Position numbers and translations under genes: made by a program | Notes under the pieces: generated by a model | What the model saw: the letters and a program-made list of their open reading frames with translations, nothing else | Database searches by the model: none | What the model was told of the DNA's origin: nothing | IMG/VR virus record: IMGVR_UViG_2617270950_000005 | Span: 1-13,143 of that record | Direction: 5' to 3' (one strand) | DNA length: 13,143 bases | Source: a virus | Lineage: Duplodnaviria; Heunggongvirae; Uroviricota; Caudoviricetes | Part shown: piece by piece, positions 1 through 13,143 of the stretch | How positions within the stretch are numbered: the stretch's first letter is position 1 | Layout: each line of letters opens with the position of its first letter

Positions 1-1
1 A

Positions 2-667
2 CTTCTTAACATGCTGGATATTAAAGGAAAAATCATCACAACTGATGCGATGGGTTGCCAGAAAGATATTGCAGAGAAGATACAAAAACAGGGAGGTGAT
101 TATTTATTCGCGGTAAAAGGAAACCAGGGGCGGCTAAATAAAGCCTTTGAGGAAAAATTTCCGCTGAAAGAATTAAATAATCCAGCGCATGACAGTTACG
201 CAATGAGTGAAAAGAGTCACGGCAGAGAAGAAATCCGTCTTCATATTGTTTGCGATGTCCCTGATGAACTTATTGATTTCACGTTTGAATGGAAAGGGCT
301 GAAGAAATTATGCGTGGCAGTCTCCTTTCGGTCCATAATAGCAGAACAAAAGAAAGAGCTCGAAATGACGGTCAGATATTATATCAGTTCTGCTGATTTA
401 ACCGCAGAGAAGTTCGCCACAGCAATCCGAAACCACTGGCATGTGGAGAATAAGCTGCACTGGCGTCTGGACGTGGTAATGAATGAAGACGACTGCAAAA
501 TAAGAAGAGGAAATGCAGCAGAATTATTTTCAGGGATACGGCACATTGCTATTAATATTTTGACGAATGATAAGGTATTCAAGGCAGGGTTAAGACGTAA
601 GATGCGAAAAGCAGCCATGGACAGAAACTACCTGGCGTCAGTCCTTACGGGGAGCGGGCTTTCGTAA
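2..667 (+). CDS. ydcC: ISAs1-family (H-repeat-associated) transposase, C-terminal part; the gene starts upstream of the window
   Basis: Open frame runs from the window edge to TAA at 665-667. Translation (…[30 protein letters not shown]…[20 protein letters not shown]…) resembles Rhs-associated H-repeat / ISAs1 transposases. Its position upstream of pptA-yddH-nhoA matches the K-12 gene order as I recall it. Confidence 0.75.
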
Positions 668-766
668 TCTTGCCCTGGGCATTATTGTCGTATAAACGCT
701 TTACCGGACACATGACATTCACAATGTGTGTTAATTTTACTGACATCTTTCAAAAGGAGCGTAATC

Positions 767-1000
767 ATGCCGCACATCGACATTAAATGTTTTCCGCGTG
801 AACTGGACGAACAACAAAAAGCAGCACTTGCTGCAGATATTACCGACGTTATTATTCGTCATCTGAACAGTAAAGACAGTTCGATAAGCATTGCTCTACA
901 GCAGATTCAACCAGAATCTTGGCAAGCTATCTGGGATGCCGAAATCGCGCCCCAAATGGAGGCTTTGATAAAGAAACCTGGTTATAGCATGAATGCTTAA
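767..1000 (+). CDS. pptA: Tautomerase PptA (4-oxalocrotonate tautomerase family), 77 aa
   Basis: ATG at 767 lies 7 nt after AAGGAG. The protein begins [13 protein letters not shown], with the N-terminal Pro typical of the tautomerase superfamily. The track ORF 728-1000 starts at an upstream GTG that is probably not used. Confidence 0.85.
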
Positions 1001-1566
1001 CCCGCCGTAACACGCTTGCCGCTGGTAACAAACGTCCCAGCACCTAAATGATGCAACGTATTGAGCTTATCATCATCAAACTGCCAGCGGCCTTCGACAA
1101 ATACCCGTGCGTCTGCCGCTGCTGATACTACTTCGCCAAACAGCGTGTCGTATTCTTCTTGCGCAGAAGTCGCAGGTAGCAATCGACACTCCATCCACGC
1201 CAGACATTTTTCCTCGACCAGAGGCAAACCAAATACCGGGCCTCTCACAACCGGAATGCCATAGCAATTAAATTTATCTTCATCACGCCCCGACACACTT
1301 CCCACCGCCCACGTCCAGTTAGTTGCTGCAACGCCCGGGATAACGATGCCAAATTTACCGTTATGTTCAATCAACTCCCTGGTCCATGTCGATTTATCTA
1401 CCACAATCGCCACGCGTGGAGGTTCAAACTCCACCGGCATTGACCAGGCTGCAGCCATAATGTTACGCCGCTGGGATTGCTCATCGAAACTGGTGATCAA
1501 GACCGTTGGGCCATGATTTAACAGACGGCTGGCATGGTGTAATTCTATGGGGATGAATCGGCTCAT
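997..1566 (-). CDS. yddH: Flavin reductase-like domain protein YddH, 189 aa
   Basis: Minus-strand ORF. The internal Met ([26 protein letters not shown]…) gives the expected length. Convergent with pptA, and the two stop codons overlap. Confidence 0.8.
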
Positions 1567-1738
1567 GGTATCGCCTCGCGAAGAAGGTTTTTTTAAGCGT
1601 AGTCCGTAACGCAATAAGTAACGAAATTAACGGGATTGGCGATTTGCGAACGTGATGCATGTCCGCGATCGCACAAAATAGCCGGTGCGGCGTCTATTCC
1701 AGGTTATAAGTTGAGAAAACCACTAAGGGAAACGCCTG

Positions 1739-2584
1739 ATGACGCCCATTCTGAATCACTATTTTGCCCGTATTAACTGGTCGGGAGCTGCTGCGGTCAA
1801 TATTGATACGCTTCGTGCATTGCACCTGAAACACAATTGCACCATTCCGTTTGAAAACCTCGACGTTTTGCTGCCGAGGGAAATACAGCTTGATAATCAA
1901 TCGCCGGAAGAGAAACTGGTGATAGCCCGTCGTGGCGGTTACTGTTTTGAGCAGAATGGCGTGTTTGAGCGGGTGTTACGCGAGCTGGGGTTTAACGTTC
2001 GCAGCTTGTTAGGGCGCGTAGTGTTATCAAATCCGCCAGCATTACCGCCGCGCACCCATCGTTTGCTGTTGGTGGAACTGGAAGAGGAAAAATGGATTGC
2101 TGATGTCGGTTTCGGTGGGCAGACGCTAACCGCGCCGATTCGTTTAGTTTCCGATCTCGTGCAGACCACGCCACACGGAGAGTATCGGTTGTTGCAGGAG
2201 GGGGATGATTGGGTGTTGCAGTTTAATCATCATCAGCATTGGCAGTCGATGTACCGTTTTGATCTCTGCGAGCAGCAACAAAGCGATTATGTGATGGGCA
2301 ATTTCTGGTCGGCGCACTGGCCGCAGTCGCATTTTCGCCATCATTTGCTGATGTGCCGCCATTTGCCGGACGGCGGCAAGCTGACACTGACCAATTTTCA
2401 TTTTACCCATTATGAAAATGGGCACGCGGTGGAGCAGCGAAATCTACCGGATGTGGCGTCATTATATGCTGTGATGCAAGAACAGTTTGGTCTGGGCGTG
2501 GATGATGCGAAACATGGCTTTACCGTGGATGAGTTAGCGCTGGTGATGGCGGCGTTTGATACGCACCCGGAGGCGGGAAAATAA
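1739..2584 (+). CDS. nhoA: Arylamine N-acetyltransferase (N-hydroxyarylamine O-acetyltransferase), 281 aa
   Basis: 281-aa ORF preceded by AAGGGA. It carries the NAT-family catalytic Cys context (RRGGYCFEQN) and matches the expected gene order after yddH. Confidence 0.9.
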   Translation: MTPILNHYFARINWSGAAAVNIDTLRALHLKHNCTIPFENLDVLLPREIQLDNQSPEEKLVIARRGGYCFEQNGVFERVLRELGFNVRSLLGRVVLSNPPALPPRTHRLLLVELEEEKWIADVGFGGQTLTAPIRLVSDLVQTTPHGEYRLLQEGDDWVLQFNHHQHWQSMYRFDLCEQQQSDYVMGNFWSAHWPQSHFRHHLLMCRHLPDGGKLTLTNFHFTHYENGHAVEQRNLPDVASLYAVMQEQFGLGVDDAKHGFTVDELALVMAAFDTHPEAGK

Positions 2585-2595
2585 TTTATGTCAGG

Positions 2596-2630
2596 TTGCC
2601 GGATGCGGCGTAAACGCCTTATCCGGCATA
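2596..2630. repeat. REP (repetitive extragenic palindromic) element in the nhoA-yddE intergenic region
   Basis: GCCGGATGCGGCGTAAACGCCTTATCCGGC is the classic enterobacterial REP consensus shape. It is flanked by the inverted pair TGTCAGG (2589-2595) and CCTGACA (2650-2656). Confidence 0.6.
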
Positions 2631-2679
2631 CATTAGCCCGGTTGTAGACCTGACAGGCGAAGCGCATCAGACAACGGTT

Positions 2680-2865
2680 TCAGAGTTCAATTGCCCATTC
2701 GGCATGAAACAAAATCACCGCTGTGCCTGAAATGGTGACTTTTTCCGGTTGGTTATCACGAATTGTCACCGTCACTTCAATCATACCGTCACGCCCCAAT
2801 GCGCGCCCCTGATGGCCTTTAACACGCAACACGTTGCCATCGTGGGGCAATTGTAACCAGGTGAA
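2680..2865 (-). pseudogene. yddE: 3' remnant (C-terminal ~62 codons) of PhzF-family isomerase gene yddE, truncated by the prophage insertion
   Basis: Minus-strand frame ending at stop (TCA on plus strand, 2680-2682) translates to …FTWLQLPHDGNVLRVKGHQGRALGRDGMIEVTVTIRDNQPEKVTISGTAVILFHAEWAIEL. This has the G-x-I-x-V-x-V … G-x-A-V pattern of PhzF/YddE C-termini. The frame hits a stop at 2866-2868 where prophage-like sequence begins, with no start codon or N-terminal part. Confidence 0.6.
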
Positions 2866-3101
2866 TCATTTGATACCAACGAGGGTTTTAGTGAAAGGAG
2901 GTGAAATCACCTGTAAGATACTGAAATAAAACAGGTGATGTCTGGATGAGCGCTTAAAGTCTATTTGATATCGATTGTGCAATAATTAATCGTTTATTCT
3001 AAAATCGGCAAAACTTTTGATACTGCGATCTCAACTTTTTAAAGCGTTTAAAACTTCATTAAATCTATATGGCAACTAACATACGGGCCAGCCTCGCCAA
3101 A
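2866..3101. repeat. Putative prophage left-end (attL-like) region with repeated candidate transposase-binding motifs
   Basis: TTTGATAYY occurs three times (2869-2877, 2964-2972, 3016-3024), spaced 95 and 52 bp, similar to the L1/L2/L3 layout of Mu attL. A perfect palindrome AGGTGAAATCACCT lies at 2899-2912 and CAGGTGA recurs at 2932-2938. Confidence 0.35.
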
Positions 3102-3632
3102 CTAACCCGCTTTAGATTCTACCGGATTTGATTGCCTACTTGTCTCGGTTTTTTCCAAAATCTCTCTGACGCAATCGTCTGGCATATCTACAATCATCAA
3201 CGCAGCCAGGCGCTTCCTGCCTTCTAGTTGTAATAAATCCTGGTTTTCTTTATTCAGCAGTGTCAGAACCGTCTCCACACCTTTGCGAGCAAGGAGATTG
3301 GTTAACTGTTCTCGTTCGTCTTTCGTAAGGAATGAAAGCATCTGTGTAAGCTGATCTCCCTTATCACCAGAACAACCAAAATTACCATAAATACCAATAT
3401 CGTTTGGTAATTCACCCTTGCCCTCTTTAAGCCACTCAAGACTAACGCCTTCACTTTCAGAAATTCGTATAAGGATACTTTCTCTGGGGGCTGGTTGTGT
3501 TTGTCCTCCCTTGAAATAGCTGTTTAATGTGTTGATATTGATTCCCCACGCTCTGGCAGCTGCACTTCTTGAAGGGTAGCGCTTTGTAAGCATTCCAATA
3601 CGTTCAATAACAGGTTCTTTTCCCTGCGACAT
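3102..3632 (-). CDS. c: Mu-type repressor (c-like), about 176 aa
   Basis: Leftward ORF divergent from ner, the same position as Mu c. Start taken at ATG (CAT 3630-3632) with AGAGGT 6 nt upstream; the longer track ORF reaching 3707 is an unsupported N-terminal extension. N-terminal region (RIGMLTKRYPSRSAAARAWGININTLNSYFKGG) looks like an HTH. Confidence 0.65.
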   Translation of the reverse strand: MSQGKEPVIERIGMLTKRYPSRSAAARAWGININTLNSYFKGGQTQPAPRESILIRISESEGVSLEWLKEGKGELPNDIGIYGNFGCSGDKGDQLTQMLSFLTKDEREQLTNLLARKGVETVLTLLNKENQDLLQLEGRKRLAALMIVDMPDDCVREILEKTETSRQSNPVESKAG

Positions 3633-3707
3633 AAAGATACCTCTTGGTGCTTTTCTAAGGAAAGGTTTCTTTCTATTTATCCAATTGAAAAATAAGGATA
3701 AAAGCAA

Positions 3708-3822
3708 AAATTAGCCAAAATACCAAAAATACCTTGATTTGGTATTTTTGGTGATGCATTATTTACCCGTACAGATATCCGCACGAATATCCGCGCGGGT
3801 AACTTTTTAGAATAGAGGAAGT
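3708..3822. promoter_or_regulatory. Divergent early promoter/operator region between repressor and ner
   Basis: CCAAAATACC at 3715-3724. Inverted repeat CCAAAAATACC (3723-3733) / GGTATTTTTGG (3741-3751). Tandem 12-bp direct repeats GATATCCGCACG (3774-3785) and AATATCCGCGCG (3786-3797) just upstream of ner. TTGATT at 3734-3739 is a possible -35. Confidence 0.55.
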
Positions 3823-4071
3823 ATGAGTAGAAGAGAAGTTTCAGATCACGATTGGCCGCCTGAAATCATCAAGGCGCGCTTACACATGGCTGGCTTATCA
3901 CTGCGCTCTTTATCTTTAAAGGCTGGTTACAGCAGGGATTCGCTGAAAAGCGTATTACGTACTCCTTGCCGACCGTATCAGCAAATAATTGCTGATGCTC
4001 TTGGGGTATCACCTGAAGAAATCTGGCCCAGTCGATACCAGGTTAAGAGCTATATGAGAAAGGCGTCATGA
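3823..4071 (+). CDS. ner: Ner-like DNA-binding transcriptional regulator, 82 aa
   Basis: Protein has Ner/Nlp family hallmarks (…QIIADALGVSPEEIWPSRYQ…). AGAGGAAG RBS. Sits immediately upstream of the transposase gene as in Mu. Confidence 0.85.
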   Translation: MSRREVSDHDWPPEIIKARLHMAGLSLRSLSLKAGYSRDSLKSVLRTPCRPYQQIIADALGVSPEEIWPSRYQVKSYMRKAS

Positions 4072-4072
4072 T

Positions 4073-6163
4073 ATGTATGTCATTGCAAAAGAACTGATTG
4101 GCGCGCCCGGAATGCCTGCTACAACAAAAGGTATTCGCCAGGCATTACAACGTTACGTACAAGGGAAAAGCTGTTGTTCCCGTCGTCGCTCAGGCTCTAA
4201 AGCAACTGAATACAGCATCGACTGTTTACCTGAAGTGACGCAGCAGGCATTACGTGAACGCTACGCCCTGCAACTGATGACGCAAAAAGCCGATGAATCA
4301 CCGGCTCCGGTGGTGACAAAGGCCAGACGCTCACCTGCCGTGGTTGATGCGGTGGAGGCATATCGCGGATCACCCCAACTGATGGTCGAACGCCTCAATG
4401 CCCTGACTGAAAACCAACGTAAAGTGGCAGAGGCACGAATAGCGATCGTCAGCGAGGTGCTGAAAATCGCGCAACAACCCGGCTTTAGTTGCGCTAAGGC
4501 TATCCGGTTCCTCGTTAACAGCCTGGCACGATCACAACTGGACGAGCGCATTGTGGCAATGGTTGAGACGGCGAACGCCAAAAAGGGAAACAGCCGCGCG
4601 TTGAGTGAAATCACGCTGAAACGCTGGATTGCGGCCTTTAACAAGGCACAGAACGCCGCTGAACGCCTGCTTTTACTGGCACCGGGTAAACGCCAGGAAA
4701 TAAAAGCCGAAGATATTAACTGGCTGCCCGAATTTCTGGCGCAGTATCGCCAGTCAAACGGCCGACCAATGACCGAGGCTTACGAGGATTTTGTTGCTGA
4801 ATGGCAGCACCGGCACGCTGATGAGCCTTATATGCTCGATATCATGCCCTCTTATGACACCATTCGCCGCGCAATGAAGAAACTGCCGGAAGTGGTGAAA
4901 CAAAAAGGCCGGGTAACTGGCAGTGAATACCGTCAGCTTGAGGGATTCACGCGCCGCGACTGGTCCAGAATGCCGGTGAATTATGTCTGGATTGGTGACG
5001 GTCACGGCATGAAGCTGAAATGCGCGCACCCGGTTCACGGGCGGCCATTCGCACCGGAAGTGACCTTTGTTATCGACGGTGGCACGCGCTTTGTGGTGGG
5101 CTGGAGTCTTGACCTGGCTGAAAATGTTTTCGCCGTAGCCGGTGCCATACAGCACGGTATTCGCCATCATGGCAAACCGTTTCTGTATTACTCGGATAAT
5201 GGCTCCGGGGAAACCGCCGACGTCCTGGATAAGGAGATTGTGGGGATACTGCCACGACTGGGGATTAATCACCCGACAGGGATTGCCGGTAATCCGCAGG
5301 GACGGGGCATTATCGAACGGCTTAACCGCACATTACCGATGCGCATAGCCCGTAAATACCGCACCTATTTCGGGAAAGGAGCAGATCGCGAGACGTTACG
5401 TAAAACCAACCGCGATTTACGCTCGGCATTCAGTGCCCTGCAACAGGGCAAACGGCTGAACGCCCGGCAGCAGTCAGCGATGCGTGATTTACCGTCCTGG
5501 TCTGAACTGATTGATGCCATTCGTGACGGTGTTGAGTGGTACAACAACCGGCCGCACGATGAATTACCCATGAAGCCGAACGGTAAACATTACAGCCCGG
5601 CGGAGTTCAGAAAAAAACGCCTGGCGGAAGAGGACACGGAAATTGAATGGCTGTCCGATGTTGAACTGCGGGATATGTTCCGGCCGATGGTGGAGCGCCC
5701 TGTAAGACGCTGTGAAATACGCTGGCTGAATAATATTTACTACGCGCCCGAGCTGCGTGACGAGCATGGCCGTAAGGTACTTATCAGCTATGACATTCAT
5801 GATGCCGAACGAATTACCGTGCGCCGCCCGGATGGCAGCGTGATTTGCGAGGCGGTATGGGACGGCAATAAACGCGAAGCCTTCCCTGTCAGCGCGGAAT
5901 ACTACAAACAGCAGCAGCGCCTTAAAGGCATGCGTAAACGCGCAGAGGAAAAAATCCGTGATGCCGAGGATGAGGTTGTCAACGTGCTGGAGCACAAGCC
6001 GCAGGAGCCCTGGCTGGAAAACATATACCGCCCTGTGGGTAATACGGTGACCGTTCAGCAACCGGTCGCTGACGATGAACCTGATGAAGAATACGAGCGT
6101 AATTTCCAGCGGGGATTGCAACTGCTCGAAGCGAAATTAAAAGAAAGTGATCCGCTGGCCTGA
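4073..6163 (+). CDS. A: MuA-like DDE transposase, 696 aa
   Basis: Large ORF with candidate DDE residues in WIGDGHGMK, YYSDNGSG and GIIERLNRT contexts. Size and position match Mu transposase A. Confidence 0.9.
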   Translation: MYVIAKELIGAPGMPATTKGIRQALQRYVQGKSCCSRRRSGSKATEYSIDCLPEVTQQALRERYALQLMTQKADESPAPVVTKARRSPAVVDAVEAYRGSPQLMVERLNALTENQRKVAEARIAIVSEVLKIAQQPGFSCAKAIRFLVNSLARSQLDERIVAMVETANAKKGNSRALSEITLKRWIAAFNKAQNAAERLLLLAPGKRQEIKAEDINWLPEFLAQYRQSNGRPMTEAYEDFVAEWQHRHADEPYMLDIMPSYDTIRRAMKKLPEVVKQKGRVTGSEYRQLEGFTRRDWSRMPVNYVWIGDGHGMKLKCAHPVHGRPFAPEVTFVIDGGTRFVVGWSLDLAENVFAVAGAIQHGIRHHGKPFLYYSDNGSGETADVLDKEIVGILPRLGINHPTGIAGNPQGRGIIERLNRTLPMRIARKYRTYFGKGADRETLRKTNRDLRSAFSALQQGKRLNARQQSAMRDLPSWSELIDAIRDGVEWYNNRPHDELPMKPNGKHYSPAEFRKKRLAEEDTEIEWLSDVELRDMFRPMVERPVRRCEIRWLNNIYYAPELRDEHGRKVLISYDIHDAERITVRRPDGSVICEAVWDGNKREAFPVSAEYYKQQQRLKGMRKRAEEKIRDAEDEVVNVLEHKPQEPWLENIYRPVGNTVTVQQPVADDEPDEEYERNFQRGLQLLEAKLKESDPLA

Positions 6164-6171
6164 AATAAAAA

Positions 6172-6199
6172 AATAACCCGAGGGGTGACTCAGGTTATT
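6172..6199 (+). other. Stem-loop in the A-B intergenic region
   Basis: AATAACCCGAG (6172-6182) pairs with CTCAGGTTATT (6189-6199) at 10 of 11 positions across a 6-nt loop, 9 nt after the A stop codon. Confidence 0.25.
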
Positions 6200-6245
6200 T
6201 GAGGTTTCAGTCTCGGAGAATGCTGTCTCAAGCGAGGTGAATAAT

Positions 6246-7178
6246 ATGACCGATATTAACGATGTAATCAAGACCATTGATGAACTTATTGATGGCGGCG
6301 TACTGACGCAGTATGCCATCGCCAGAGAGGCGGGAATTTCCGACGGCACATTATCGGCTTTCCGTAAGGGAAAATATAAAGGCGATAACGCTGCTGTGGC
6401 TGCTTCCCTGCGCTCCTGGTATGAGAACTGGAATAAACAAAGCGCACTGCCGGAACCGCCGCAGTTTGTGGAAACTCAGACAGTCCAGGAGCTGCGCGCA
6501 CTGTTTCAGGCGGTTCGCCTGATGGGCTGTATTAACGTTATTGTGGGCGTACCGGGTGTGGGTAAAACGGCCACTGCCCGTAATTACTGCCAGGAGCAAC
6601 CAAACACCTGGATGATCACCCTGTCACCCGCGCACTCCAGCGTCACGGAGTGTCTGCTGGAGCTGGCCGATGCGCTGGGGATTGATTACACCCGCGCGAA
6701 CAAAGGGGCATTATCCCGCGCCATCCGCCGTCGCCTGATGGGAACGCGTGGACTGGTGATTGTGGATGAGGCGGATCATCTTGGTATTGACGGTCTGGAG
6801 CAACTCCGGGCAATTCAGGACGCCACGGGGATCGGGATGGTGCTTATTGGTAACCCGCGCGGATTGTTTAAAGGTGGACGCCGCGCCTTTGATGATTTAT
6901 CGCGCCTGTTCAGCCGTCTTGCCCGTACAAAACAACTTCGCAAGGCCAAAAAGGCGGATGTGCTGGCCATTGCCATGGCGTGGGGGATCAGTGGTGAGGC
7001 CGAGCTGGCCGTCATGCAGGCTATCGCTGAAAAGCCGGGAGCGTTACGCGTTCTGACACATACGCTTAACCAGGCGTGGCTCACCGCCAGCGGTGAAGGC
7101 GCGGCGCTGACAGAAAAACATATTAATGCGGCCTTTAAAGAGGTTTATACCAACCCTGAATTACTCTCACAGGTGTGA
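6246..7178 (+). CDS. B: MuB-like AAA+ ATPase (transposition target-DNA activator), about 310 aa
   Basis: Walker A GVPGVGKT and Walker B-like LVIVDEAD. N-terminal HTH-like region. Start moved to ATG 6246 just after GAGGTGA; the track start at 6237 is a GTG inside the RBS. Confidence 0.9.
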   Translation: MTDINDVIKTIDELIDGGVLTQYAIAREAGISDGTLSAFRKGKYKGDNAAVAASLRSWYENWNKQSALPEPPQFVETQTVQELRALFQAVRLMGCINVIVGVPGVGKTATARNYCQEQPNTWMITLSPAHSSVTECLLELADALGIDYTRANKGALSRAIRRRLMGTRGLVIVDEADHLGIDGLEQLRAIQDATGIGMVLIGNPRGLFKGGRRAFDDLSRLFSRLARTKQLRKAKKADVLAIAMAWGISGEAELAVMQAIAEKPGALRVLTHTLNQAWLTASGEGAALTEKHINAAFKEVYTNPELLSQV

Positions 7179-7180
7179 TT

Positions 7181-7402
7181 ATGGCGGTATTTAATATTCC
7201 TGATATTTACGGACGCTTTTACCTGGTTAATTTCGATAACGTGAAGGTGATTTCACTGGCCGAAAATAAAGAATGTGGCGATTTACTTTTTGAATTTAAT
7301 GACCGCACACGAATGGTGATATCTGCCGGACTTGATCGCGAAGGTGCGACAGAAGTTTACAGCGGAATATGCCGTTCTGTTGGTGCGAAACAAGTCAGCT
7401 AA
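7181..7402 (+). CDS. Hypothetical small protein (73 aa) in the position of Mu kil
   Basis: ORF starts right after the B stop and shares the early operon orientation. No recognisable motif. Confidence 0.5.
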   Translation: MAVFNIPDIYGRFYLVNFDNVKVISLAENKECGDLLFEFNDRTRMVISAGLDREGATEVYSGICRSVGAKQVS

Positions 7403-7414
7403 ATGAGGTGTTAT

Positions 7415-7669
7415 ATGAATATGCAATCCTGCGGTAACAAAATGAATTTATTCGACTCCCTGAACAGCGCGCGCCGTCTGACCGAACTTGCCGGTGCGGT
7501 ACTGGAACGCAGTAAGCGCTATCCGCAACGTTTTGCACTGAAAACCACGCCGCCGGTAGGCAACGTGCAGGGAACCGGTGAAATTGAAATCACCATACAG
7601 ACCAACGGCCTGCGCCGCCGTGTGAAGGCCACCCGCATCAGCGGCTGCACGGTTTACTGGGAGGTGTGA
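7415..7669 (+). CDS. Hypothetical protein, 84 aa
   Basis: ATG 7415 preceded by GAGGTG at 7406-7411; the track start at 7403 overlaps that RBS. Packed head to tail with its neighbours. Confidence 0.5.
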   Translation: MNMQSCGNKMNLFDSLNSARRLTELAGAVLERSKRYPQRFALKTTPPVGNVQGTGEIEITIQTNGLRRRVKATRISGCTVYWEV

Positions 7670-7670
7670 G

Positions 7671-7952
7671 GTGAAAAAAAATCTCATTGCATGGGCGTGG
7701 TCGAGTGGTCTTATTGAGTTTGGTTACGTCCTGCCGGAAGGTGCATTGCCGATAGTTGCCGGAAAGCCTGCCACGGTACGGCATGTGATTGAGGTTATGG
7801 CGCGTCATGGACGTGATGAACAGGAGCAGTTACTGGTTCCGGGGATACCGGAAGCGGTGACGGAGGAAGAAGCCTTTAATGCCATGATTCGGTTCTGCCG
7901 TGAGGTCAGACGCCGGGTCAGTTATCCAAACAGAACGAGGACCAGAGGATGA
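7671..7952 (+). CDS. Hypothetical protein, 93 aa (GTG start)
   Basis: GTG 7671 follows GGGAGGTGTGAGG, 2 nt after the previous stop. No recognisable motif. Confidence 0.5.
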   Translation: MKKNLIAWAWSSGLIEFGYVLPEGALPIVAGKPATVRHVIEVMARHGRDEQEQLLVPGIPEAVTEEEAFNAMIRFCREVRRRVSYPNRTRTRG

Positions 7953-8221
7953 GTAAAGTCGTACACATTATTTTCGAATATAAGGAGCACGTTATCCATA
8001 AAAACGCTGATGGAACAGTGCGCATGGGGGTAAGTCTGGACATACGTTCAACCGGGATAAAGCAGAAAGGTGATGGACCCGCCATGATTTTTGGGGTGGT
8101 TATGCTCGCGGAAAGCAGAAACTTCGCAGAGCTTGTGGCAATGAAAGCCAGTGCATTCATGAAAGACAGGGGCATGGCTTCCGGGGTTATTAACGGTAAT
8201 GAATTTAATCAGCAGGGGTAA
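7949..8221 (+). CDS. Hypothetical protein, 90 aa; first of two tandem paralogs
   Basis: ATGA overlap with the upstream ORF. N-terminus MSKVVHIIFEYKEHVIH resembles the next ORF's N-terminus. Confidence 0.55.
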   Translation: MSKVVHIIFEYKEHVIHKNADGTVRMGVSLDIRSTGIKQKGDGPAMIFGVVMLAESRNFAELVAMKASAFMKDRGMASGVINGNEFNQQG

Positions 8222-8225
8222 TTCC

Positions 8226-8519
8226 ATGAGCAAAGTACGCGTTATTTTTGAATTTAACCACGTAATGCATGAAGTAAAGCCAGCCGGTAATGATAGTCAG
8301 GAAATCACGGAGGGGGTTACTGCCACTGTAAAAATCGAACGTGATACGGAGAACAGACCGACAGGCCCATGTGATGTTTATGCGCAAATTCTTAAATATC
8401 ACAGCCCCACAATTATTCAGTTTCTGACAGATGAACTTCAGGGTTCCATGCAGGCTCTGGGGGTGAAAAGCAGCATTGAGCGCCGCTCCTTGCAGAACGC
8501 ACCAGATACATTGCAATAA
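8226..8519 (+). CDS. Hypothetical protein, 97 aa; second tandem paralog
   Basis: Start at ATG 8226 (MSKVRVIFEFNHVMH…); the track's upstream start at 8199 overlaps the preceding ORF. Shares the N-terminal motif of the previous ORF. Confidence 0.55.
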   Translation: MSKVRVIFEFNHVMHEVKPAGNDSQEITEGVTATVKIERDTENRPTGPCDVYAQILKYHSPTIIQFLTDELQGSMQALGVKSSIERRSLQNAPDTLQ

Positions 8520-8530
8520 GGAAAAACAAA

Positions 8531-9061
8531 ATGGCAAAACGCGTTACAAAATTAAAGGCTGTAGCCGAGGCCGCACCGCAGACCCGCGAAGAAGTCAGCC
8601 GCGATATCCGCACCCTGGGCGATATTCAGCGAGAGGCGCTGCGCCTGGAAACGGCGATGAATGATGAAGTGGCAGAAATCACCGCCCGTTATACGCCGCA
8701 GATTGAAAATCTTAAAAAGCAAATCAAAGTGCTTTTTAAAGGGATTCAGGACTGGTGTAAAACCAACCGTGATGAGCTGACGAACGGCGGCAAAACCAAA
8801 ACTGCCAATCTGACCACCGGAACGGTGTCATGGCGGCTGGGAACGCCATCATGCAGCGTCAGCCGTGATGTGGAAGGTGTGATTGACACGCTGCGCCGTA
8901 TGGGGCTTGAGCGATTCATCCGCACGAAAGAGGAAGTGAACAAGGAAGCCGTCCTGGCGGAGCCGGATGCGGTGAAAGGCATTGCCGGTATAAAGGTGAA
9001 TAAAGGCGCTGAAAGTTTTTATGTCGAGCCTTTTGAACAGGATGCCGGACTGAATAAATAA
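8531..9061 (+). CDS. gam: Gam-like host-nuclease inhibitor (Ku-like DNA-end-binding protein), 176 aa
   Basis: Strong resemblance along its length to Mu Gam as recalled (…RLETAMNDEVAEI…NRDELTNGGKTKTANLTTGTVSWRL…RFIRTKEEVNKEAVL…EPFEQDAGL). Confidence 0.9.
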   Translation: MAKRVTKLKAVAEAAPQTREEVSRDIRTLGDIQREALRLETAMNDEVAEITARYTPQIENLKKQIKVLFKGIQDWCKTNRDELTNGGKTKTANLTTGTVSWRLGTPSCSVSRDVEGVIDTLRRMGLERFIRTKEEVNKEAVLAEPDAVKGIAGIKVNKGAESFYVEPFEQDAGLNK

Positions 9062-9158
9062 CACCGCATTAATTATTTAAATATCACTTCATTTTAATTA
9101 TGGCGCTCGCGTCAGGGGACTGCTTGCGCCTGAAAGCTGAAAATAAGGAATCGGAAAT

Positions 9159-9701
9159 ATGGCATATTTTTATTTCAAATTAGACCGTGTGCAGACAAAT
9201 AAATATTTCACCAAATATCAACAGGCTGTTTTACCGCTACGCAACAGTATTCTTCGGACATTACTGAAAAATACAGGCGCTGCCGGATTGCGCTTAAAGC
9301 CGTTCGCCATGGACAGAATCAGTGAGTTTTATTTTGCCGGTGCTCTGCCTGCGGGCTGGCGTAAGCGCGATGATGTGGCTTTTATCGGTGGCGGACAGTG
9401 CTTTATAGCCAGACCTGATGAGTCATGCCCTGAAGGACCGGCGATTGCCGCAATGATTGAAGCCGCTGAACGCGAGTTAAGAAAGCGTCCTGATTTCCTT
9501 GTCTGGCTCTGTGAAAAGCTGGGGGTAATGAGAATCCCCTCCATGTTTAACACGGACTCCTGGTGGACCCCTTCGTTCTCCCGTGATGCCCTGTGCGTGG
9601 TGTTTAAAGTGGGCGCTTATGGCAGGGGAATAAAAGGATGTATTCCTGAAGAATGCCAGGAAATTAAACATTCTGAATATGTGGCGCTGACGGAGGAATA
9701 A
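9159..9701 (+). CDS. Hypothetical protein, 180 aa (accessory ORF A)
   Basis: ORF follows AAGGA and the only sizeable intergenic gap (97 bp) in the early operon. AT-rich 5' end. No recognisable motif. Confidence 0.55.
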   Translation: MAYFYFKLDRVQTNKYFTKYQQAVLPLRNSILRTLLKNTGAAGLRLKPFAMDRISEFYFAGALPAGWRKRDDVAFIGGGQCFIARPDESCPEGPAIAAMIEAAERELRKRPDFLVWLCEKLGVMRIPSMFNTDSWWTPSFSRDALCVVFKVGAYGRGIKGCIPEECQEIKHSEYVALTEE

Positions 9702-9704
9702 TTC

Positions 9705-10238
9705 ATGATTGATGCAAAAGTGCTTGAAGGGGTTAAAAACTGGCTGAGTATTTACGGGCGTCTGACCTGCGGCGTACTGGCTGAAAAAATGAATATGCCG
9801 CCATCCTCCATGGTTTATTTTCTGCGTGATGCGGTTGATGCCGGGGTGCTGACGGAATGTAACGGTTTTTATGATATTCCGCGTTCCCGCCCGGTGCAGC
9901 CGATTCGTCGCAAATGCAGACAGGAATCTGCGGCTGATGATGTTCAGTGGTGCAGCTTCAGAAAATCCCTGCCATGGATTGAGGGGCATGATATTCCGTC
10001 GATGGCGTGGGAATTTGCTCAGGGCGTTCTGACCTGTGAAACCGTTTATGTGGTGGCTGAAGTTGATGAGCAGGCCATGAAAGAAGGCGTGCCCCAGTTT
10101 GTGATGGCGTATATCGACATTCGCCTGGGTGTCATCATCTGCGGTTTAAGCGGCTGGAATATCACCGCGCGTGTTCTGCGCTACCTGATTGTTGACCGGA
10201 CAGCAGCGCCTGCCGGGATATCTGCGGAGGTGGCGTAA
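9705..10238 (+). CDS. Hypothetical protein, 177 aa, with possible N-terminal winged-helix DNA-binding domain (accessory ORF B)
   Basis: 3-nt gap from ORF A. N-terminal 60 aa (…GVKNWLSIYGRLTCGVLAEKMNMPPSSMVYFLRDAVDAGVLTE) has a wHTH-like pattern. C-terminal half has no known motif. Confidence 0.55.
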   Translation: MIDAKVLEGVKNWLSIYGRLTCGVLAEKMNMPPSSMVYFLRDAVDAGVLTECNGFYDIPRSRPVQPIRRKCRQESAADDVQWCSFRKSLPWIEGHDIPSMAWEFAQGVLTCETVYVVAEVDEQAMKEGVPQFVMAYIDIRLGVIICGLSGWNITARVLRYLIVDRTAAPAGISAEVA

Positions 10239-10753
10239 TGTTCTTTAAAACATCAAACCCTTCCGCGCTGGCTGCGTGGCAAAAATACCAGCAGGACTGC
10301 CAGACGGTAAAAGATGAGGCGAAACGCCTTGAGGCCGTGCTGAATGTTGCGTGCCGGTCGGTATTTGAATTCAGTATCAGTGGTTTTTGTTTTAAGGGAC
10401 TGCGTTTTACGGAGGACAAATATCCTTTTCATCGCGACTTATGGCGAAAACCGACTGCGTCGAATGGCTGGAGCTGCACACCGCGCACATCACGTATCCC
10501 TAAAGCCCTGCGTGTTGCCTCTGATGAACTGAACAGTCTGTGGCGTGAATATTCGCCCGTCACGTATGCCAGAACCGATGCCCTGTTGTTCTGGCTGGGT
10601 ATTGACTTCTCAGCAATATTGTATGGTCCCGTGAACTGGTTCTGCGTTGACAATGTGATTTATCTTCAGTGCGAAGATGATTCCGCAAAACGGAAAATGA
10701 CCGAAATTCTGTCTGATGAGTTTTATGCTGCCGAAAAGCGAGTCAGGGGGTGA
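10238..10753 (+). CDS. Hypothetical protein, 171 aa (accessory ORF C)
   Basis: TAATG stop/start overlap with ORF B indicates translational coupling. No recognisable motif. Confidence 0.55.
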   Translation: MFFKTSNPSALAAWQKYQQDCQTVKDEAKRLEAVLNVACRSVFEFSISGFCFKGLRFTEDKYPFHRDLWRKPTASNGWSCTPRTSRIPKALRVASDELNSLWREYSPVTYARTDALLFWLGIDFSAILYGPVNWFCVDNVIYLQCEDDSAKRKMTEILSDEFYAAEKRVRG

Positions 10754-11308: not shown

Positions 11309-11634
11309 TAACGACCTTATTTGTTGAATCAGATGAACCTCTTGTGTGTGCCGCCGGAATGCCGCTCTGTGGCGGAACGCTGACCGGTGTTTATTTCGGG
11401 GATTTACGCGGTTATCCCTGGCATTCACTGAATGATGCTTTCCCACCTGATATGGAGGCTGTCGTGCTGATTGTTCAGTATGGTCACCGTCAGGAGCTGC
11501 GCATCGGCCATATGGGGTATGAAGGCTTTTTTGTTGATGAAGAAACCGGAGCCTGCCTTGAAGATGAAGACGGACAGGTGACGCACTGGTGTCATATTTC
11601 GGCTTTACCGGAATTACGGGAGGTGAATGCGTGA
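11305..11634 (+). CDS. DUF551-like phage protein, 109 aa (accessory ORF E)
   Basis: ATGA overlap with ORF D. C-terminal …DGQVTHWCHISALPE resembles the DUF551 signature (…THW.PLPEPP) common in enterobacterial prophage accessory proteins. Confidence 0.5.
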   Translation: MITTLFVESDEPLVCAAGMPLCGGTLTGVYFGDLRGYPWHSLNDAFPPDMEAVVLIVQYGHRQELRIGHMGYEGFFVDEETGACLEDEDGQVTHWCHISALPELREVNA

Positions 11635-11981
11635 GAAGTTATATTGATAATGAAAAGCTGGAGACAATAAGCGACTGTCTTAGCTTGCTGGCAAAAATCA
11701 AAGAAACTATTGAAGAGATTAAATTTCAGCTTGAATACGCACCATGTGGCGATGATGCATGGCGTAATGCTGCCAGAAAAGCACTGGCTGTCTTTCAGAA
11801 ACAACGCCGGGCTGTTGAATACCGCCTTGCTGTATTGCGCCAGGAGGAAAAGGAAAGAAATATAAGACGTCATGAACGCGTTAATGATTTCCTTGTTCGT
11901 GAATTAAAAGAGCGCGTGCCGGAGTCGGTATTTTTTGAATGTGAGGCTATAGCCCGTAGCAAAGCACTGGAAACAGATTAA
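11631..11981 (+). CDS. Hypothetical coiled-coil protein, about 116 aa (accessory ORF F)
   Basis: GTG 11631 lies 5 nt after GGGAGGTG and overlaps the ORF E stop (GTGA). The alternative ATG 11589 would overlap ORF E by 45 bp. Charged heptad-like sequence (…LAVLRQEEKERNIRRHERVNDFLVRELKER…). Confidence 0.45.
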   Translation: MRSYIDNEKLETISDCLSLLAKIKETIEEIKFQLEYAPCGDDAWRNAARKALAVFQKQRRAVEYRLAVLRQEEKERNIRRHERVNDFLVRELKERVPESVFFECEAIARSKALETD

Positions 11982-11996
11982 GCAGGCAGGTGAATA

Positions 11997-12305
11997 ATGA
12001 GTATTGAATTAAGATCGTCTTATGAATATCGCAAAATCCTTATCGCCGGAGGCATGAAACCGGAAGATGCAGAGAAATTCGTTTCTTTTATGGATAAAGA
12101 ATGTGACAAGCGGGATATGCCAGAAATTATTATGGATGACATGATTCTGGATTCAGCCGTGGCGTTAAGTCCGTTATGGATTGTGCATACTCTTGCGGAA
12201 ATAGCTAAAAGAAGTGACAAGCAGGCGGCTGTCGCCGCCCTGCGATTACTGGCTGAATTAAGTTGTTCAGTCAATCCCAATACGTTCTTTGACGAACCTG
12301 GTTAA
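11997..12305 (+). CDS. Hypothetical acidic protein, 102 aa (accessory ORF G)
   Basis: ATG preceded by AGGTGA. AT-rich. Its 3' end overlaps the convergent minus-strand ORF by 39 bp. Confidence 0.5.
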   Translation: MSIELRSSYEYRKILIAGGMKPEDAEKFVSFMDKECDKRDMPEIIMDDMILDSAVALSPLWIVHTLAEIAKRSDKQAAVAALRLLAELSCSVNPNTFFDEPG

Positions 12306-12677
12306 CATTGATTTGGTAACTTCTTTAATTAGATCAAATGGTGCGTCTGTAAACTCCTTTTTGATTCTTTCAAGGATTGGTTTTTTTCTCAGGGCGTTAG
12401 CTAAATCATGCCCCTGCTGGGTAAGCATAATGGGCGTGTTTCTGAAACCAACGCCCAGAGAATGGAAAAAGAAACCAATATATTTGGGTGTTTCTGACTG
12501 CATATCACCATTAACAATTGAGCCATTATCAGCGAGAAGCATAAGATGAAAAACTTTTTTATCCTTTTCCTCTCCTTCTGCCTCAGCCATGCCCAGATCC
12601 TGTAGTGTAAGGAAAGGTGTTTCAGCATCCTGAAAAGTTGTGAGAATACTTAATACTTCATCGTAATCTATTTTCAT
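12267..12677 (-). CDS. Hypothetical protein, 136 aa; lone minus-strand, AT-rich moron inside the rightward early operon
   Basis: Clean 136-codon ORF antisense to the early operon, with AAAGGT about 7 nt upstream of its ATG. Visibly more AT-rich than flanking prophage DNA. No recognisable motif. Confidence 0.55.
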   Translation of the reverse strand: MKIDYDEVLSILTTFQDAETPFLTLQDLGMAEAEGEEKDKKVFHLMLLADNGSIVNGDMQSETPKYIGFFFHSLGVGFRNTPIMLTQQGHDLANALRKKPILERIKKEFTDAPFDLIKEVTKSMLTRFVKERIGID

Positions 12678-12698
12678 ATCGATACCTTTAGTTTTATC

Positions 12699-12728
12699 CG
12701 GGCGGCGTTGCCATGCCGCCTGTTGTTA
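12699..12728 (+). terminator. Possible GC-rich stem-loop followed by a U-rich tract
   Basis: GGCGGC (12701-12706) pairs with GCCGCC (12715-12720) across an 8-nt loop, followed by TGTTGTTA. It lies between the minus-strand moron start and the gemA-like ORF. Confidence 0.25.
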
Positions 12729-12741
12729 CGGAGACACGATA

Positions 12742-12945
12742 ATGAATCGCGCTTCCCTGATTACCTTAATACATGTCGCAAAACGCGATCTACAGCTTGA
12801 CCATGAGACCTACACATCCGTACTACTGGCAGCCACCGGCAAACCCAGTTGCCGGGATATGTCACCGGATGAGTTATCCCGCGTGCTGGATGTTTTCAAA
12901 AAACGCGGTTTTAAAGTGCGTCAGAAGCCGGTTACCGGAATATGA
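12742..12945 (+). CDS. gemA: GemA-like (Mu gp16 / DUF1018 family) protein, short form of 67 aa
   Basis: MNRASLITLIHVAKRDLQLDHETYTSVLLAATGKPSCRDMSPDELSRVLDVFKKRGF matches the conserved N-terminal GemA/DUF1018 pattern as recalled. The ORF then stops. Confidence 0.55.
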   Translation: MNRASLITLIHVAKRDLQLDHETYTSVLLAATGKPSCRDMSPDELSRVLDVFKKRGFKVRQKPVTGI

Positions 12946-13082
12946 ATGTGCTGGATGATATTCTCACGCCGCTGCGTATTTATGAAGGCGGTGCGCTGGA
13001 ATGTATTCTGAACCGTTATAAGCCTGCATGGCAGACGTTTATTTACGTTTATGCAAACAGCCATGAAGAGGAGACTATTTAA
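12942..13082 (+). CDS. Small ORF (46 aa) coupled to the gemA-like ORF by an ATGA overlap; possibly the frameshifted continuation of gemA
   Basis: ATG 12942 overlaps the TGA of the gemA-like ORF; ends at TAA 13080-13082. Below the 60-aa cutoff of the ORF track. No motif. Confidence 0.3.
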   Translation: MNVLDDILTPLRIYEGGALECILNRYKPAWQTFIYVYANSHEEETI

Positions 13083-13143
13083 TGTTTCATGTTGATAATA
13101 ATTCCGGCGTGGCGAATATGCCTGCGCTGGCACCGGCGCAGAG
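13082..13143 (+). CDS. 5' end of a further early-operon ORF that runs off the window
   Basis: TAATG overlap with the previous ORF. Begins MFHVDNNSGVANMPALAPAQ with no stop before the window end. Confidence 0.3.
   Translation, partial: MFHVDNNSGVANMPALAPAQ

Follow-up and report, generated by a model that had tools for sequence, protein, structure and literature searches.

The window analysed here is the whole stretch of 13,143 nucleotides from IMG/VR virus record IMGVR_UViG_2617270950_000005, and it corresponds to the left portion of a Mu-like prophage of E. coli or Shigella. Near its right end, one open reading frame at 12267..12677 is read leftward, against the early genes on either side of it. 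An earlier note made from the letters alone took this frame for a moron, a single accessory gene expressed in the lysogen, and named superinfection exclusion, abortive infection or a toxin-like function as possible roles. The question is what a gene in that orientation is for, and it has several parts: whether the frame is a gene at all, whether it belongs to the Mu-like core or is cargo, how it could be transcribed, and what its protein may do.

The locus and its prophage

The features of the window are as follows, with the family name and the predicted fold explained further below.

3102-3707, minus strand: c-type repressor gene
From 3823, plus strand: ner
4073-6163, plus strand: transposase A gene
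6237-7178, plus strand: transposase B gene
8531-9061, plus strand: Gam gene
11997..12305, plus strand: ORF G, convergent early gene, phrog_1988 (E = 1 × 10−38)
About 12190..12760: exchanged module, comprising the ORF G 3′ end, the DUF2513 gene, a 64-bp spacer and a diverged gemA 5′ end
12267..12677, minus strand: DUF2513-family gene, 136 aa, predicted winged-helix domain over about residues 1-97, then three predicted C-terminal helices
12267..12305, both strands: tail-to-tail overlap of the DUF2513 gene and ORF G, 39 bp
12685..12688, minus strand: Shine-Dalgarno-like AAGG, read from the sequence, 7 nt 5′ of the ATG
12699..12722 (region to 12730), plus strand: GC-rich hairpin with a 10-bp stem and a tetraloop, followed by TGTTGTTA, from RNA folding
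12742..12945, plus strand: gemA (gp16) 5′ fragment, divergent from the DUF2513 gene, Pfam GemA (E = 7 × 10−11)

The frame starts with ATG on the minus strand, its translation is the one quoted in the earlier note, and the feature is confirmed as a real, conserved gene. The ribosome-binding site that had been assigned to it is the AAGG in the list above, and relatives have AAGGA or GAGAG at an equal distance from the start. The 39-bp overlap described for its 3′ end is exact when measured against ORF G. An overlap of 30 to 39 bp recurs in diverged Mu-like loci, at 39 bp in L011, L059, L066, L068, L072 and L073, and at 30 bp, again tail to tail with the ORF G homolog, in L054-L056. As for being the only minus-strand gene among more than 20 rightward ones, it is indeed the sole leftward gene from ner to gemA, but the number was too high, with about 17 rightward ORFs counted in the window. 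A series of small rightward early genes lies between Gam and the gemA fragment. RefSeq contains an essentially identical prophage with equal gene order in E. coli JKHS016, where the target ORF is named "DUF2513 domain-containing protein" and is the sole leftward CDS from ner to the point of rearrangement in the late region.

The gene had also been called more AT-rich than its flanks. This is correct overall, with a GC content of 0.387 against 0.499 for the early operon, but the contrast on the left is only modest because the two genes on that side are AT-rich too (GC 0.424 and 0.433). Together with a GC3 of 0.343, the value for the DUF2513 gene is the lowest among 19 genes, and only 0.3% of 411-nt windows across the early operon are equally AT-rich. 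In all related loci measured, the GC of the DUF2513 gene is 2-11 points under that of its flanks.

Some further observations concern the prophage as a whole. It is a deletion derivative (12924-13143): gemA is cut after about codon 65, and what follows is the 3′ end of a YmfQ-family baseplate gene and then the beginning of a tail-fibre gene; homology to intact gemA stops at 12938. The prophage therefore lacks mor and the lysis genes, along with the head genes and most tail genes. Contigs with the identical DUF2513 gene show three breakpoints in gemA, at nt 112, 197 and 300, and all three deletions retain the gene with no less than 175 bp of its upstream sequence. Host DNA makes up the left flank, with a DDE transposase fragment at 11-667, a flavin reductase-like gene at 997-1614 (minus strand) and an arylamine N-acetyltransferase gene at 1739-2584, and an AT-rich stretch at about 2850-3750 covers the c-type repressor gene and its flanks.

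A catalogued family

According to the earlier note, the protein matched nothing recognised. That does not hold, as it matches both DUF2513 (PF10711) and phrog_585. The phrog_585 match has E = 7 × 10−18 over residues 1-134, and the PF10711 match of the single sequence scores 23.6 bits (E = 6.6 × 10−5) over profile positions 1-96 of 100, which is below the 29.6-bit cut-off. A profile built from homologs collects 87 proteins at E ≤ 1 × 10−5, most of which have a precomputed PF10711 hit, and a RefSeq gene 99.9% identical at the nucleotide level is named DUF2513 domain-containing. An exhaustive phmmer search gives 114 cluster representatives, nearly all of them stand-alone proteins of 130-145 aa. 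Homologs are full length and gap-poor down to about 25% identity, with conservation at F15, H44 and G68 and in the motif R-L-T-x-x-G-H-D-F at 84-92. At the near end of the range, the gene shows 99.8-100% identity across six complete E. coli genomes as well as IMG/VR contigs, of which several are degraded.

DUF2513 is a catalogued but uncharacterised family, and since it has no known function, membership says nothing on mechanism. No mention of DUF2513 or PF10711 was found in the literature searched, where matches to YjcQ were unrelated, and neither the SfMu paper nor the Pseudomonas Mu-like phage paper describes such a gene. Domain fusions in longer family members were not informative (a 734-aa match is a repetitive, unrelated protein), and NCBIfam gave no meaningful match.

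Presence and absence in Mu-like prophages

Whether the gene is core or cargo can be read from prophages of the same type. This prophage region occurs in 232 of 5426 complete E. coli genomes, and 6 of those 232 carry the DUF2513 gene, so that the absence from related prophages at the same position that the earlier note had made a check on its proposal is borne out. A seventh genome, E. coli S1-CAM-01-A (L183, 1453-2593), has a 93-bp stub next to an ISKpn26 (IS5-like) insertion; the insertion and an adjoining deletion took ORF G and the DUF2513 gene except for its initial 29 nt, whereas the spacer is still present, as is an intact gemA. In most related prophages among the matches listed, the slot between ORF G and gemA holds two forward ORFs of 65 and 98 aa, neither of which has a Pfam match. 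In L002 and L003 they lie at 3823-4306, equivalent to window positions 12250-12741, and the 98-aa ORF has, by eye, a hydrophobic N-terminal stretch. When the window is aligned to prophages without the DUF2513 gene, homology is lost at about 12190-12250 in the 3′ end of ORF G, of which the last 20 or so codons fall within the exchanged module, and comes back, diverged, in the 5′ end of gemA. The gene is dispensable for this prophage type. A standard core Mu gene was considered and rejected: the gene is absent from all deposited Mu-like phages as well as from most related prophages. Among 50,697 phage records, there is no homolog in a deposited Mu-like phage, and so isolated Mu-type phages lack the gene; the only matches are two Klebsiella phages at about 30% identity.

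Citrobacter, Kluyvera and Pantoea have relatives at 30-54% identity in their Mu-like prophages, and many viral contigs carry them too. All 35 of the 35 loci with Mu markers (MuA, MuB, Gam, GemA or Mor by tblastn) have the DUF2513 gene on the opposite strand. It adjoins gemA in most loci, usually just 5′, and in a Kluyvera-type group it sits between gemA and mor. When viral loci are instead anchored on gemA, 22 of 80 have a match beside it, all antisense, one of these being a match of 19 residues only. Within diverged Mu-like prophages, the module is old and recurrent, and is neither a one-off nor a recent pick-up.

The same gemA-flanking slots elsewhere contain unrelated ORFs that are likewise on the opposite strand and AT-rich, so the flanks of gemA look like a hotspot for antisense cargo; no description of such a hotspot in enterobacterial Mu-like prophages was found in the literature searched. 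Upstream of gemA, one observes a 67-107-aa family with the pattern MSD..LAAF..AGN.MVTL..KGVI (L111 2191-2430, L127 2299-2502 and L147 2188-2511, all on the minus strand). Between gemA and mor, there are signal-peptide proteins of 102-143 aa (L114 3051-3482 and L118 3052-3372, both on the minus strand, and L133, L135 and L179). The antisense ORFs of these slots have no Pfam match.

Relatives in other prophages and in integrons

Outside Mu-like prophages, the family is found in several other places. In lambdoid prophages of Klebsiella, Citrobacter and Pantoea, a homolog is encoded between the lysis genes and terminase in the direction of the late operon, so lysogen-only expression is no family-wide rule. 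A homolog in a P2-like prophage adjoins portal and Dam methylase genes, and one in a Dickeya chromosomal island is beside an IS110-family element. Vibrio superintegrons have homologs as single-gene cassettes (L021, and also L019, L020, L022 and L017). L021 from Vibrio parahaemolyticus (1-10408) has 16 attC-like repeats spaced at 450-790 nt, an integron integrase IntI at the end of the array, and the DUF2513 gene at 5001-5408 bracketed by repeats at 4857-4983 and 5400-5529. These settings show that the gene can move as a single gene.

Defence genes are close to the homolog in 2 of the 5 lambdoid loci examined. In one (L078, 3082-7909), AbiU (PADLOC E = 4 × 10−199) lies 200 nt upstream of the homolog, and a PDC-S33 (RelA/SpoT-like) gene is 1.5 kb away from it. 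In the other (L077, 5001-8094), an OLD/GajA-like ATPase is encoded at a distance of 0.8 kb. A toxin-antitoxin module was rejected because no partner gene is found: both neighbors in the Mu-like slot are on the other strand, and the integron cassette is a single gene too.

With the term moron as defined in the wording quoted in PMC4378225, the proposal of the earlier note survives in part. Presence and absence, atypical GC, the shared slot and the spread of the family all favor it, while no convincing promoter and no terminator belonging to the gene was found. In the broad sense of the term, a moron or cargo gene is well supported.

Promoter, terminator and hairpin

As gemA diverges from the DUF2513 gene, a promoter for the latter, if there is one, would be in the spacer or on the opposite strand of gemA. 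A scan for consensus promoters upstream of the gene found none. Our own sigma-70 position weight matrix (PWM), applied to the 260 nt upstream in 15 Mu-like loci, gave nothing above background for the window or its close relatives; in the window, the best score reaches 5.3, whereas the background median per 260 nt is 6.6. A weak TAGATC-18-TAnnnT site in gemA is positionally conserved in a way that is not separable from coding constraint. In a codon test for a −10 element within gemA, the rare xTA Leu codon proved common, too, in gemA genes that lack a DUF2513 neighbor, and it follows the phylogeny. At the other end of the gene, which is inside ORF G, the minus strand past 12267 has no terminator-like site.

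Distant DUF2513 homologs, by contrast, carry their own promoter-like sites, with scores that reach or exceed the 90th percentile of background, and conserved palindromes overlap these sites. In L077, L080, L088 and L089, the palindrome GTGACATGTCAC follows the −10 element and precedes the ribosome-binding site, about 20-35 nt 5′ of the start. In L005, L009, L012 and L014, CAGGCA-N9-TGCCTG covers TTCACT-18-TAAATT about 45-75 nt 5′ of the start; this site is common to Klebsiella and Citrobacter and has a degenerate form in Dickeya. Palindromes placed over promoter-like sites are the usual anatomy of a self-repressing regulator. They are also indirect evidence that the protein may bind specific DNA sequences as a dimer, a possibility on which its acidic pI (see below) calls for caution.

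The spacer at 12678-12741 contains GGCGGC-N8-GCCGCC. Its hairpin at 12699..12722, which separates the start of the DUF2513 gene from the ribosome-binding site of gemA, resembles a terminator for the early-operon strand. When the spacer is folded as 68 nt, its energy is not clearly better than that of shuffles (z = −1.6). Two relatives, L023 and L051, have an equivalent hairpin with compensatory changes in its arms, followed by T6-T8 on the early strand. In L054-type relatives, the hairpin is absent and the spacer is 30 bp. Rfam finds no RNA family in 11500-13143.

Predicted fold and surface

The AlphaFold2 model on 70 sequences has a pLDDT of 94 and predicts a winged helix resembling PadR, MarR and TubR, with a C-terminal helical extension formed by three additional helices at residues 99-133, after the wing. 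The fold as modeled is of the winged-helix DNA-binding type, and is neither toxin-like nor membrane-protein-like. Sequence and structure searches are silent on nearer relatives: Pfam has no PadR, MarR or HxlR match at E ≤ 0.1, the PDB has no sequence relative by phmmer with the protein or by the 70-sequence profile, Foldseek against BFVD has no match at E ≤ 0.001, and PADLOC-DB v2 has no defence family at E ≤ 1.

Variation over the model is uneven. The most conserved segment, residues 83-97, belongs to the scaffold. Variability is highest in two segments, residues 28-42 (helix 2, the turn and the beginning of helix 3) and residues 71-80 at the tip of the wing, which are the usual DNA-contact surfaces. 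A fixed scaffold carrying a diversified contact surface would fit a variable target specificity. The family is also uniformly acidic, with a median pI of 5.2 and a net charge of about −5, and in the target protein the start of the presumed recognition helix is acidic as well (EGEEKDKK). The acidic pI and helix start are unusual for a DNA binder and fit a protein-binding role.

Proposed role and alternatives

The reading that we tentatively favor is that of a stand-alone accessory winged-helix regulator, expressed in the lysogen against the early operon and silenced on induction, with lineage-specific DNA binding and a possible benefit in something like immunity or in gene control. Its steps would be as follows. 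The DUF2513 gene faces against the Pe-driven early operon, and on that basis its transcription in the repressed prophage would come from its own promoter, probably a weak or non-consensus one in or beside the 5′ end of gemA. After induction, convergent transcription of the early operon would silence it, as the early transcript runs antisense to the gene over its entire length. The protein is probably a DNA-binding, stand-alone repressor of transcription that probably acts on its own promoter, and its specificity surface, formed where the recognition helix starts and at the tip of the wing, would have diversified between lineages. The most speculative step is the last one, in which the repressor-like protein might protect the lysogen against other phages or control host or prophage genes.

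The alternative that survives best, though rather unlikely, is anti-phage defence or superinfection exclusion without transcriptional repression, the winged helix sensing DNA or protein of an invader and the C-terminal helices blocking infection through protein contacts. An acidic protein with hypervariable surface patches would suit this, as would its places in prophage cargo hotspots, near AbiU, PDC-S33 and the OLD/GajA-like ATPase in some lambdoid prophages, and as single-gene cassettes in Vibrio superintegrons, which a preprint reports to be rich in defence genes (bioRxiv 10.1101/2024.07.02.601686). Exclusion genes expressed in the lysogen are known in a Pseudomonas transposable phage (PMC9936078). 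Against it, there is no PADLOC match and no enzymatic, membrane or toxin-like domain, a protein of 136 aa has no obvious effector, and defence neighbors turned up in just two of the five lambdoid loci examined.

A more sweeping form of immunity, which we consider unlikely, would make DUF2513 a new class of stand-alone single-protein immunity factors in prophages and integrons. Their hypervariable surface would target the DNA or protein of specific invaders and silence them, and the antisense wiring in Mu-like prophages would keep them on in lysogeny only.

Distinctly less probable is a regulator of the prophage's own development, in which the leftward gene, its transcription or both would gate early read-through into gemA and mor, tightening lysogeny or timing the early-to-middle switch, with the hairpin as part of the device. 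What speaks for such gating is the position, since in most Mu-like prophages examined the gene adjoins gemA, on its 5′ side or in the gemA-mor gap, and is antisense in all. The early-strand terminator-like hairpin, which the window shares with L023 and L051 and which just precedes the ribosome-binding site of gemA, is a further point for it, as are the three independent deletions that lack mor and late genes and keep the DUF2513 gene with its upstream region. However, the family is found without gemA or mor in lambdoid and P2-like prophages, integron cassettes and the Dickeya island; most related prophages do without the gene, and L054-type relatives do without the hairpin. Unrelated antisense cargo, including secreted proteins, occupies the same slots, so the position beside gemA looks instead like a permissive hotspot.

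An anti-defence (counter-immunity) protein for use during infection, binding and blocking a host defence protein as many small acidic phage inhibitors do, is very unlikely. A small acidic protein with a hypervariable surface in an accessory part of the early region would fit, and so would the late-operon direction in lambdoid prophages, but antisense to the Mu-like early operon is the wrong orientation for expression early in infection, and the gene is kept in degraded prophages and chromosomal integron cassettes where such a protein brings no obvious benefit. Last, an antisense ORF that arose by chance or is decaying would account for the lack of a detectable promoter or terminator and for rarity in E. 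coli, yet it is effectively refuted by conservation: full-length homologs, conserved motifs such as RLTxxGHDF, a confident structure prediction and 99.8-100% identity across six genomes.

The outcome is moderately interesting. The DUF2513 gene is prophage cargo of a catalogued, uncharacterised family, and the broader pattern is a testable lead. DUF2513 gains a clear ecological signature: it is single-gene cargo in three prophage architectures and in chromosomal integrons, frequently within defence hotspots, and the surface presumed to serve in recognition is diversifying. Those two properties make it a cheap, well-defined candidate for a phage-challenge or DNA-binding screen. Should it prove to be only a minor self-regulated regulator, the locus would be a case of ordinary prophage mosaicism.

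Comparison with known systems

Within DUF2513 (PF10711) and PHROG 585, the target protein shares the length class of 130-145 aa, the stand-alone architecture and the conserved motifs, and differs in belonging to a diverged subfamily of Mu-like prophages. A related family is YjcQ (PF09639), which is also matched by one DUF2513 family member.

Classical prophage morons include bor of lambda, on the opposite strand near the lysis-cos junction, together with lom and rexAB, and gp15 of HK97. The DUF2513 gene has in common with them that it is a single gene present or absent between equal neighbors, with atypical composition and an orientation suiting expression from a repressed prophage. Unlike them, it has no detectable promoter or terminator, and it replaces two forward genes and overlaps a neighbor by 39 bp, which is no clean insertion.

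In the Pseudomonas transposable phage Fc02, olg1 and gene 10 are expressed in the lysogen by strand-specific RNA-seq, and superinfecting phages are excluded (PMC9936078). The likeness is that of a transposable (Mu-type) temperate phage with small accessory genes on overlapping opposite strands. The differences are that the Fc02 genes are beside the repressor and ner and not beside gemA, and that the proteins are unrelated.

For the protein itself, the comparison is with the PadR, MarR and HxlR regulators and TubR, with which the model shares the predicted winged helix-turn-helix fold. The DUF2513 protein departs from them in its three C-terminal helices, a longer wing and an acidic charge, and in a recognition helix whose start is acidic and hypervariable.
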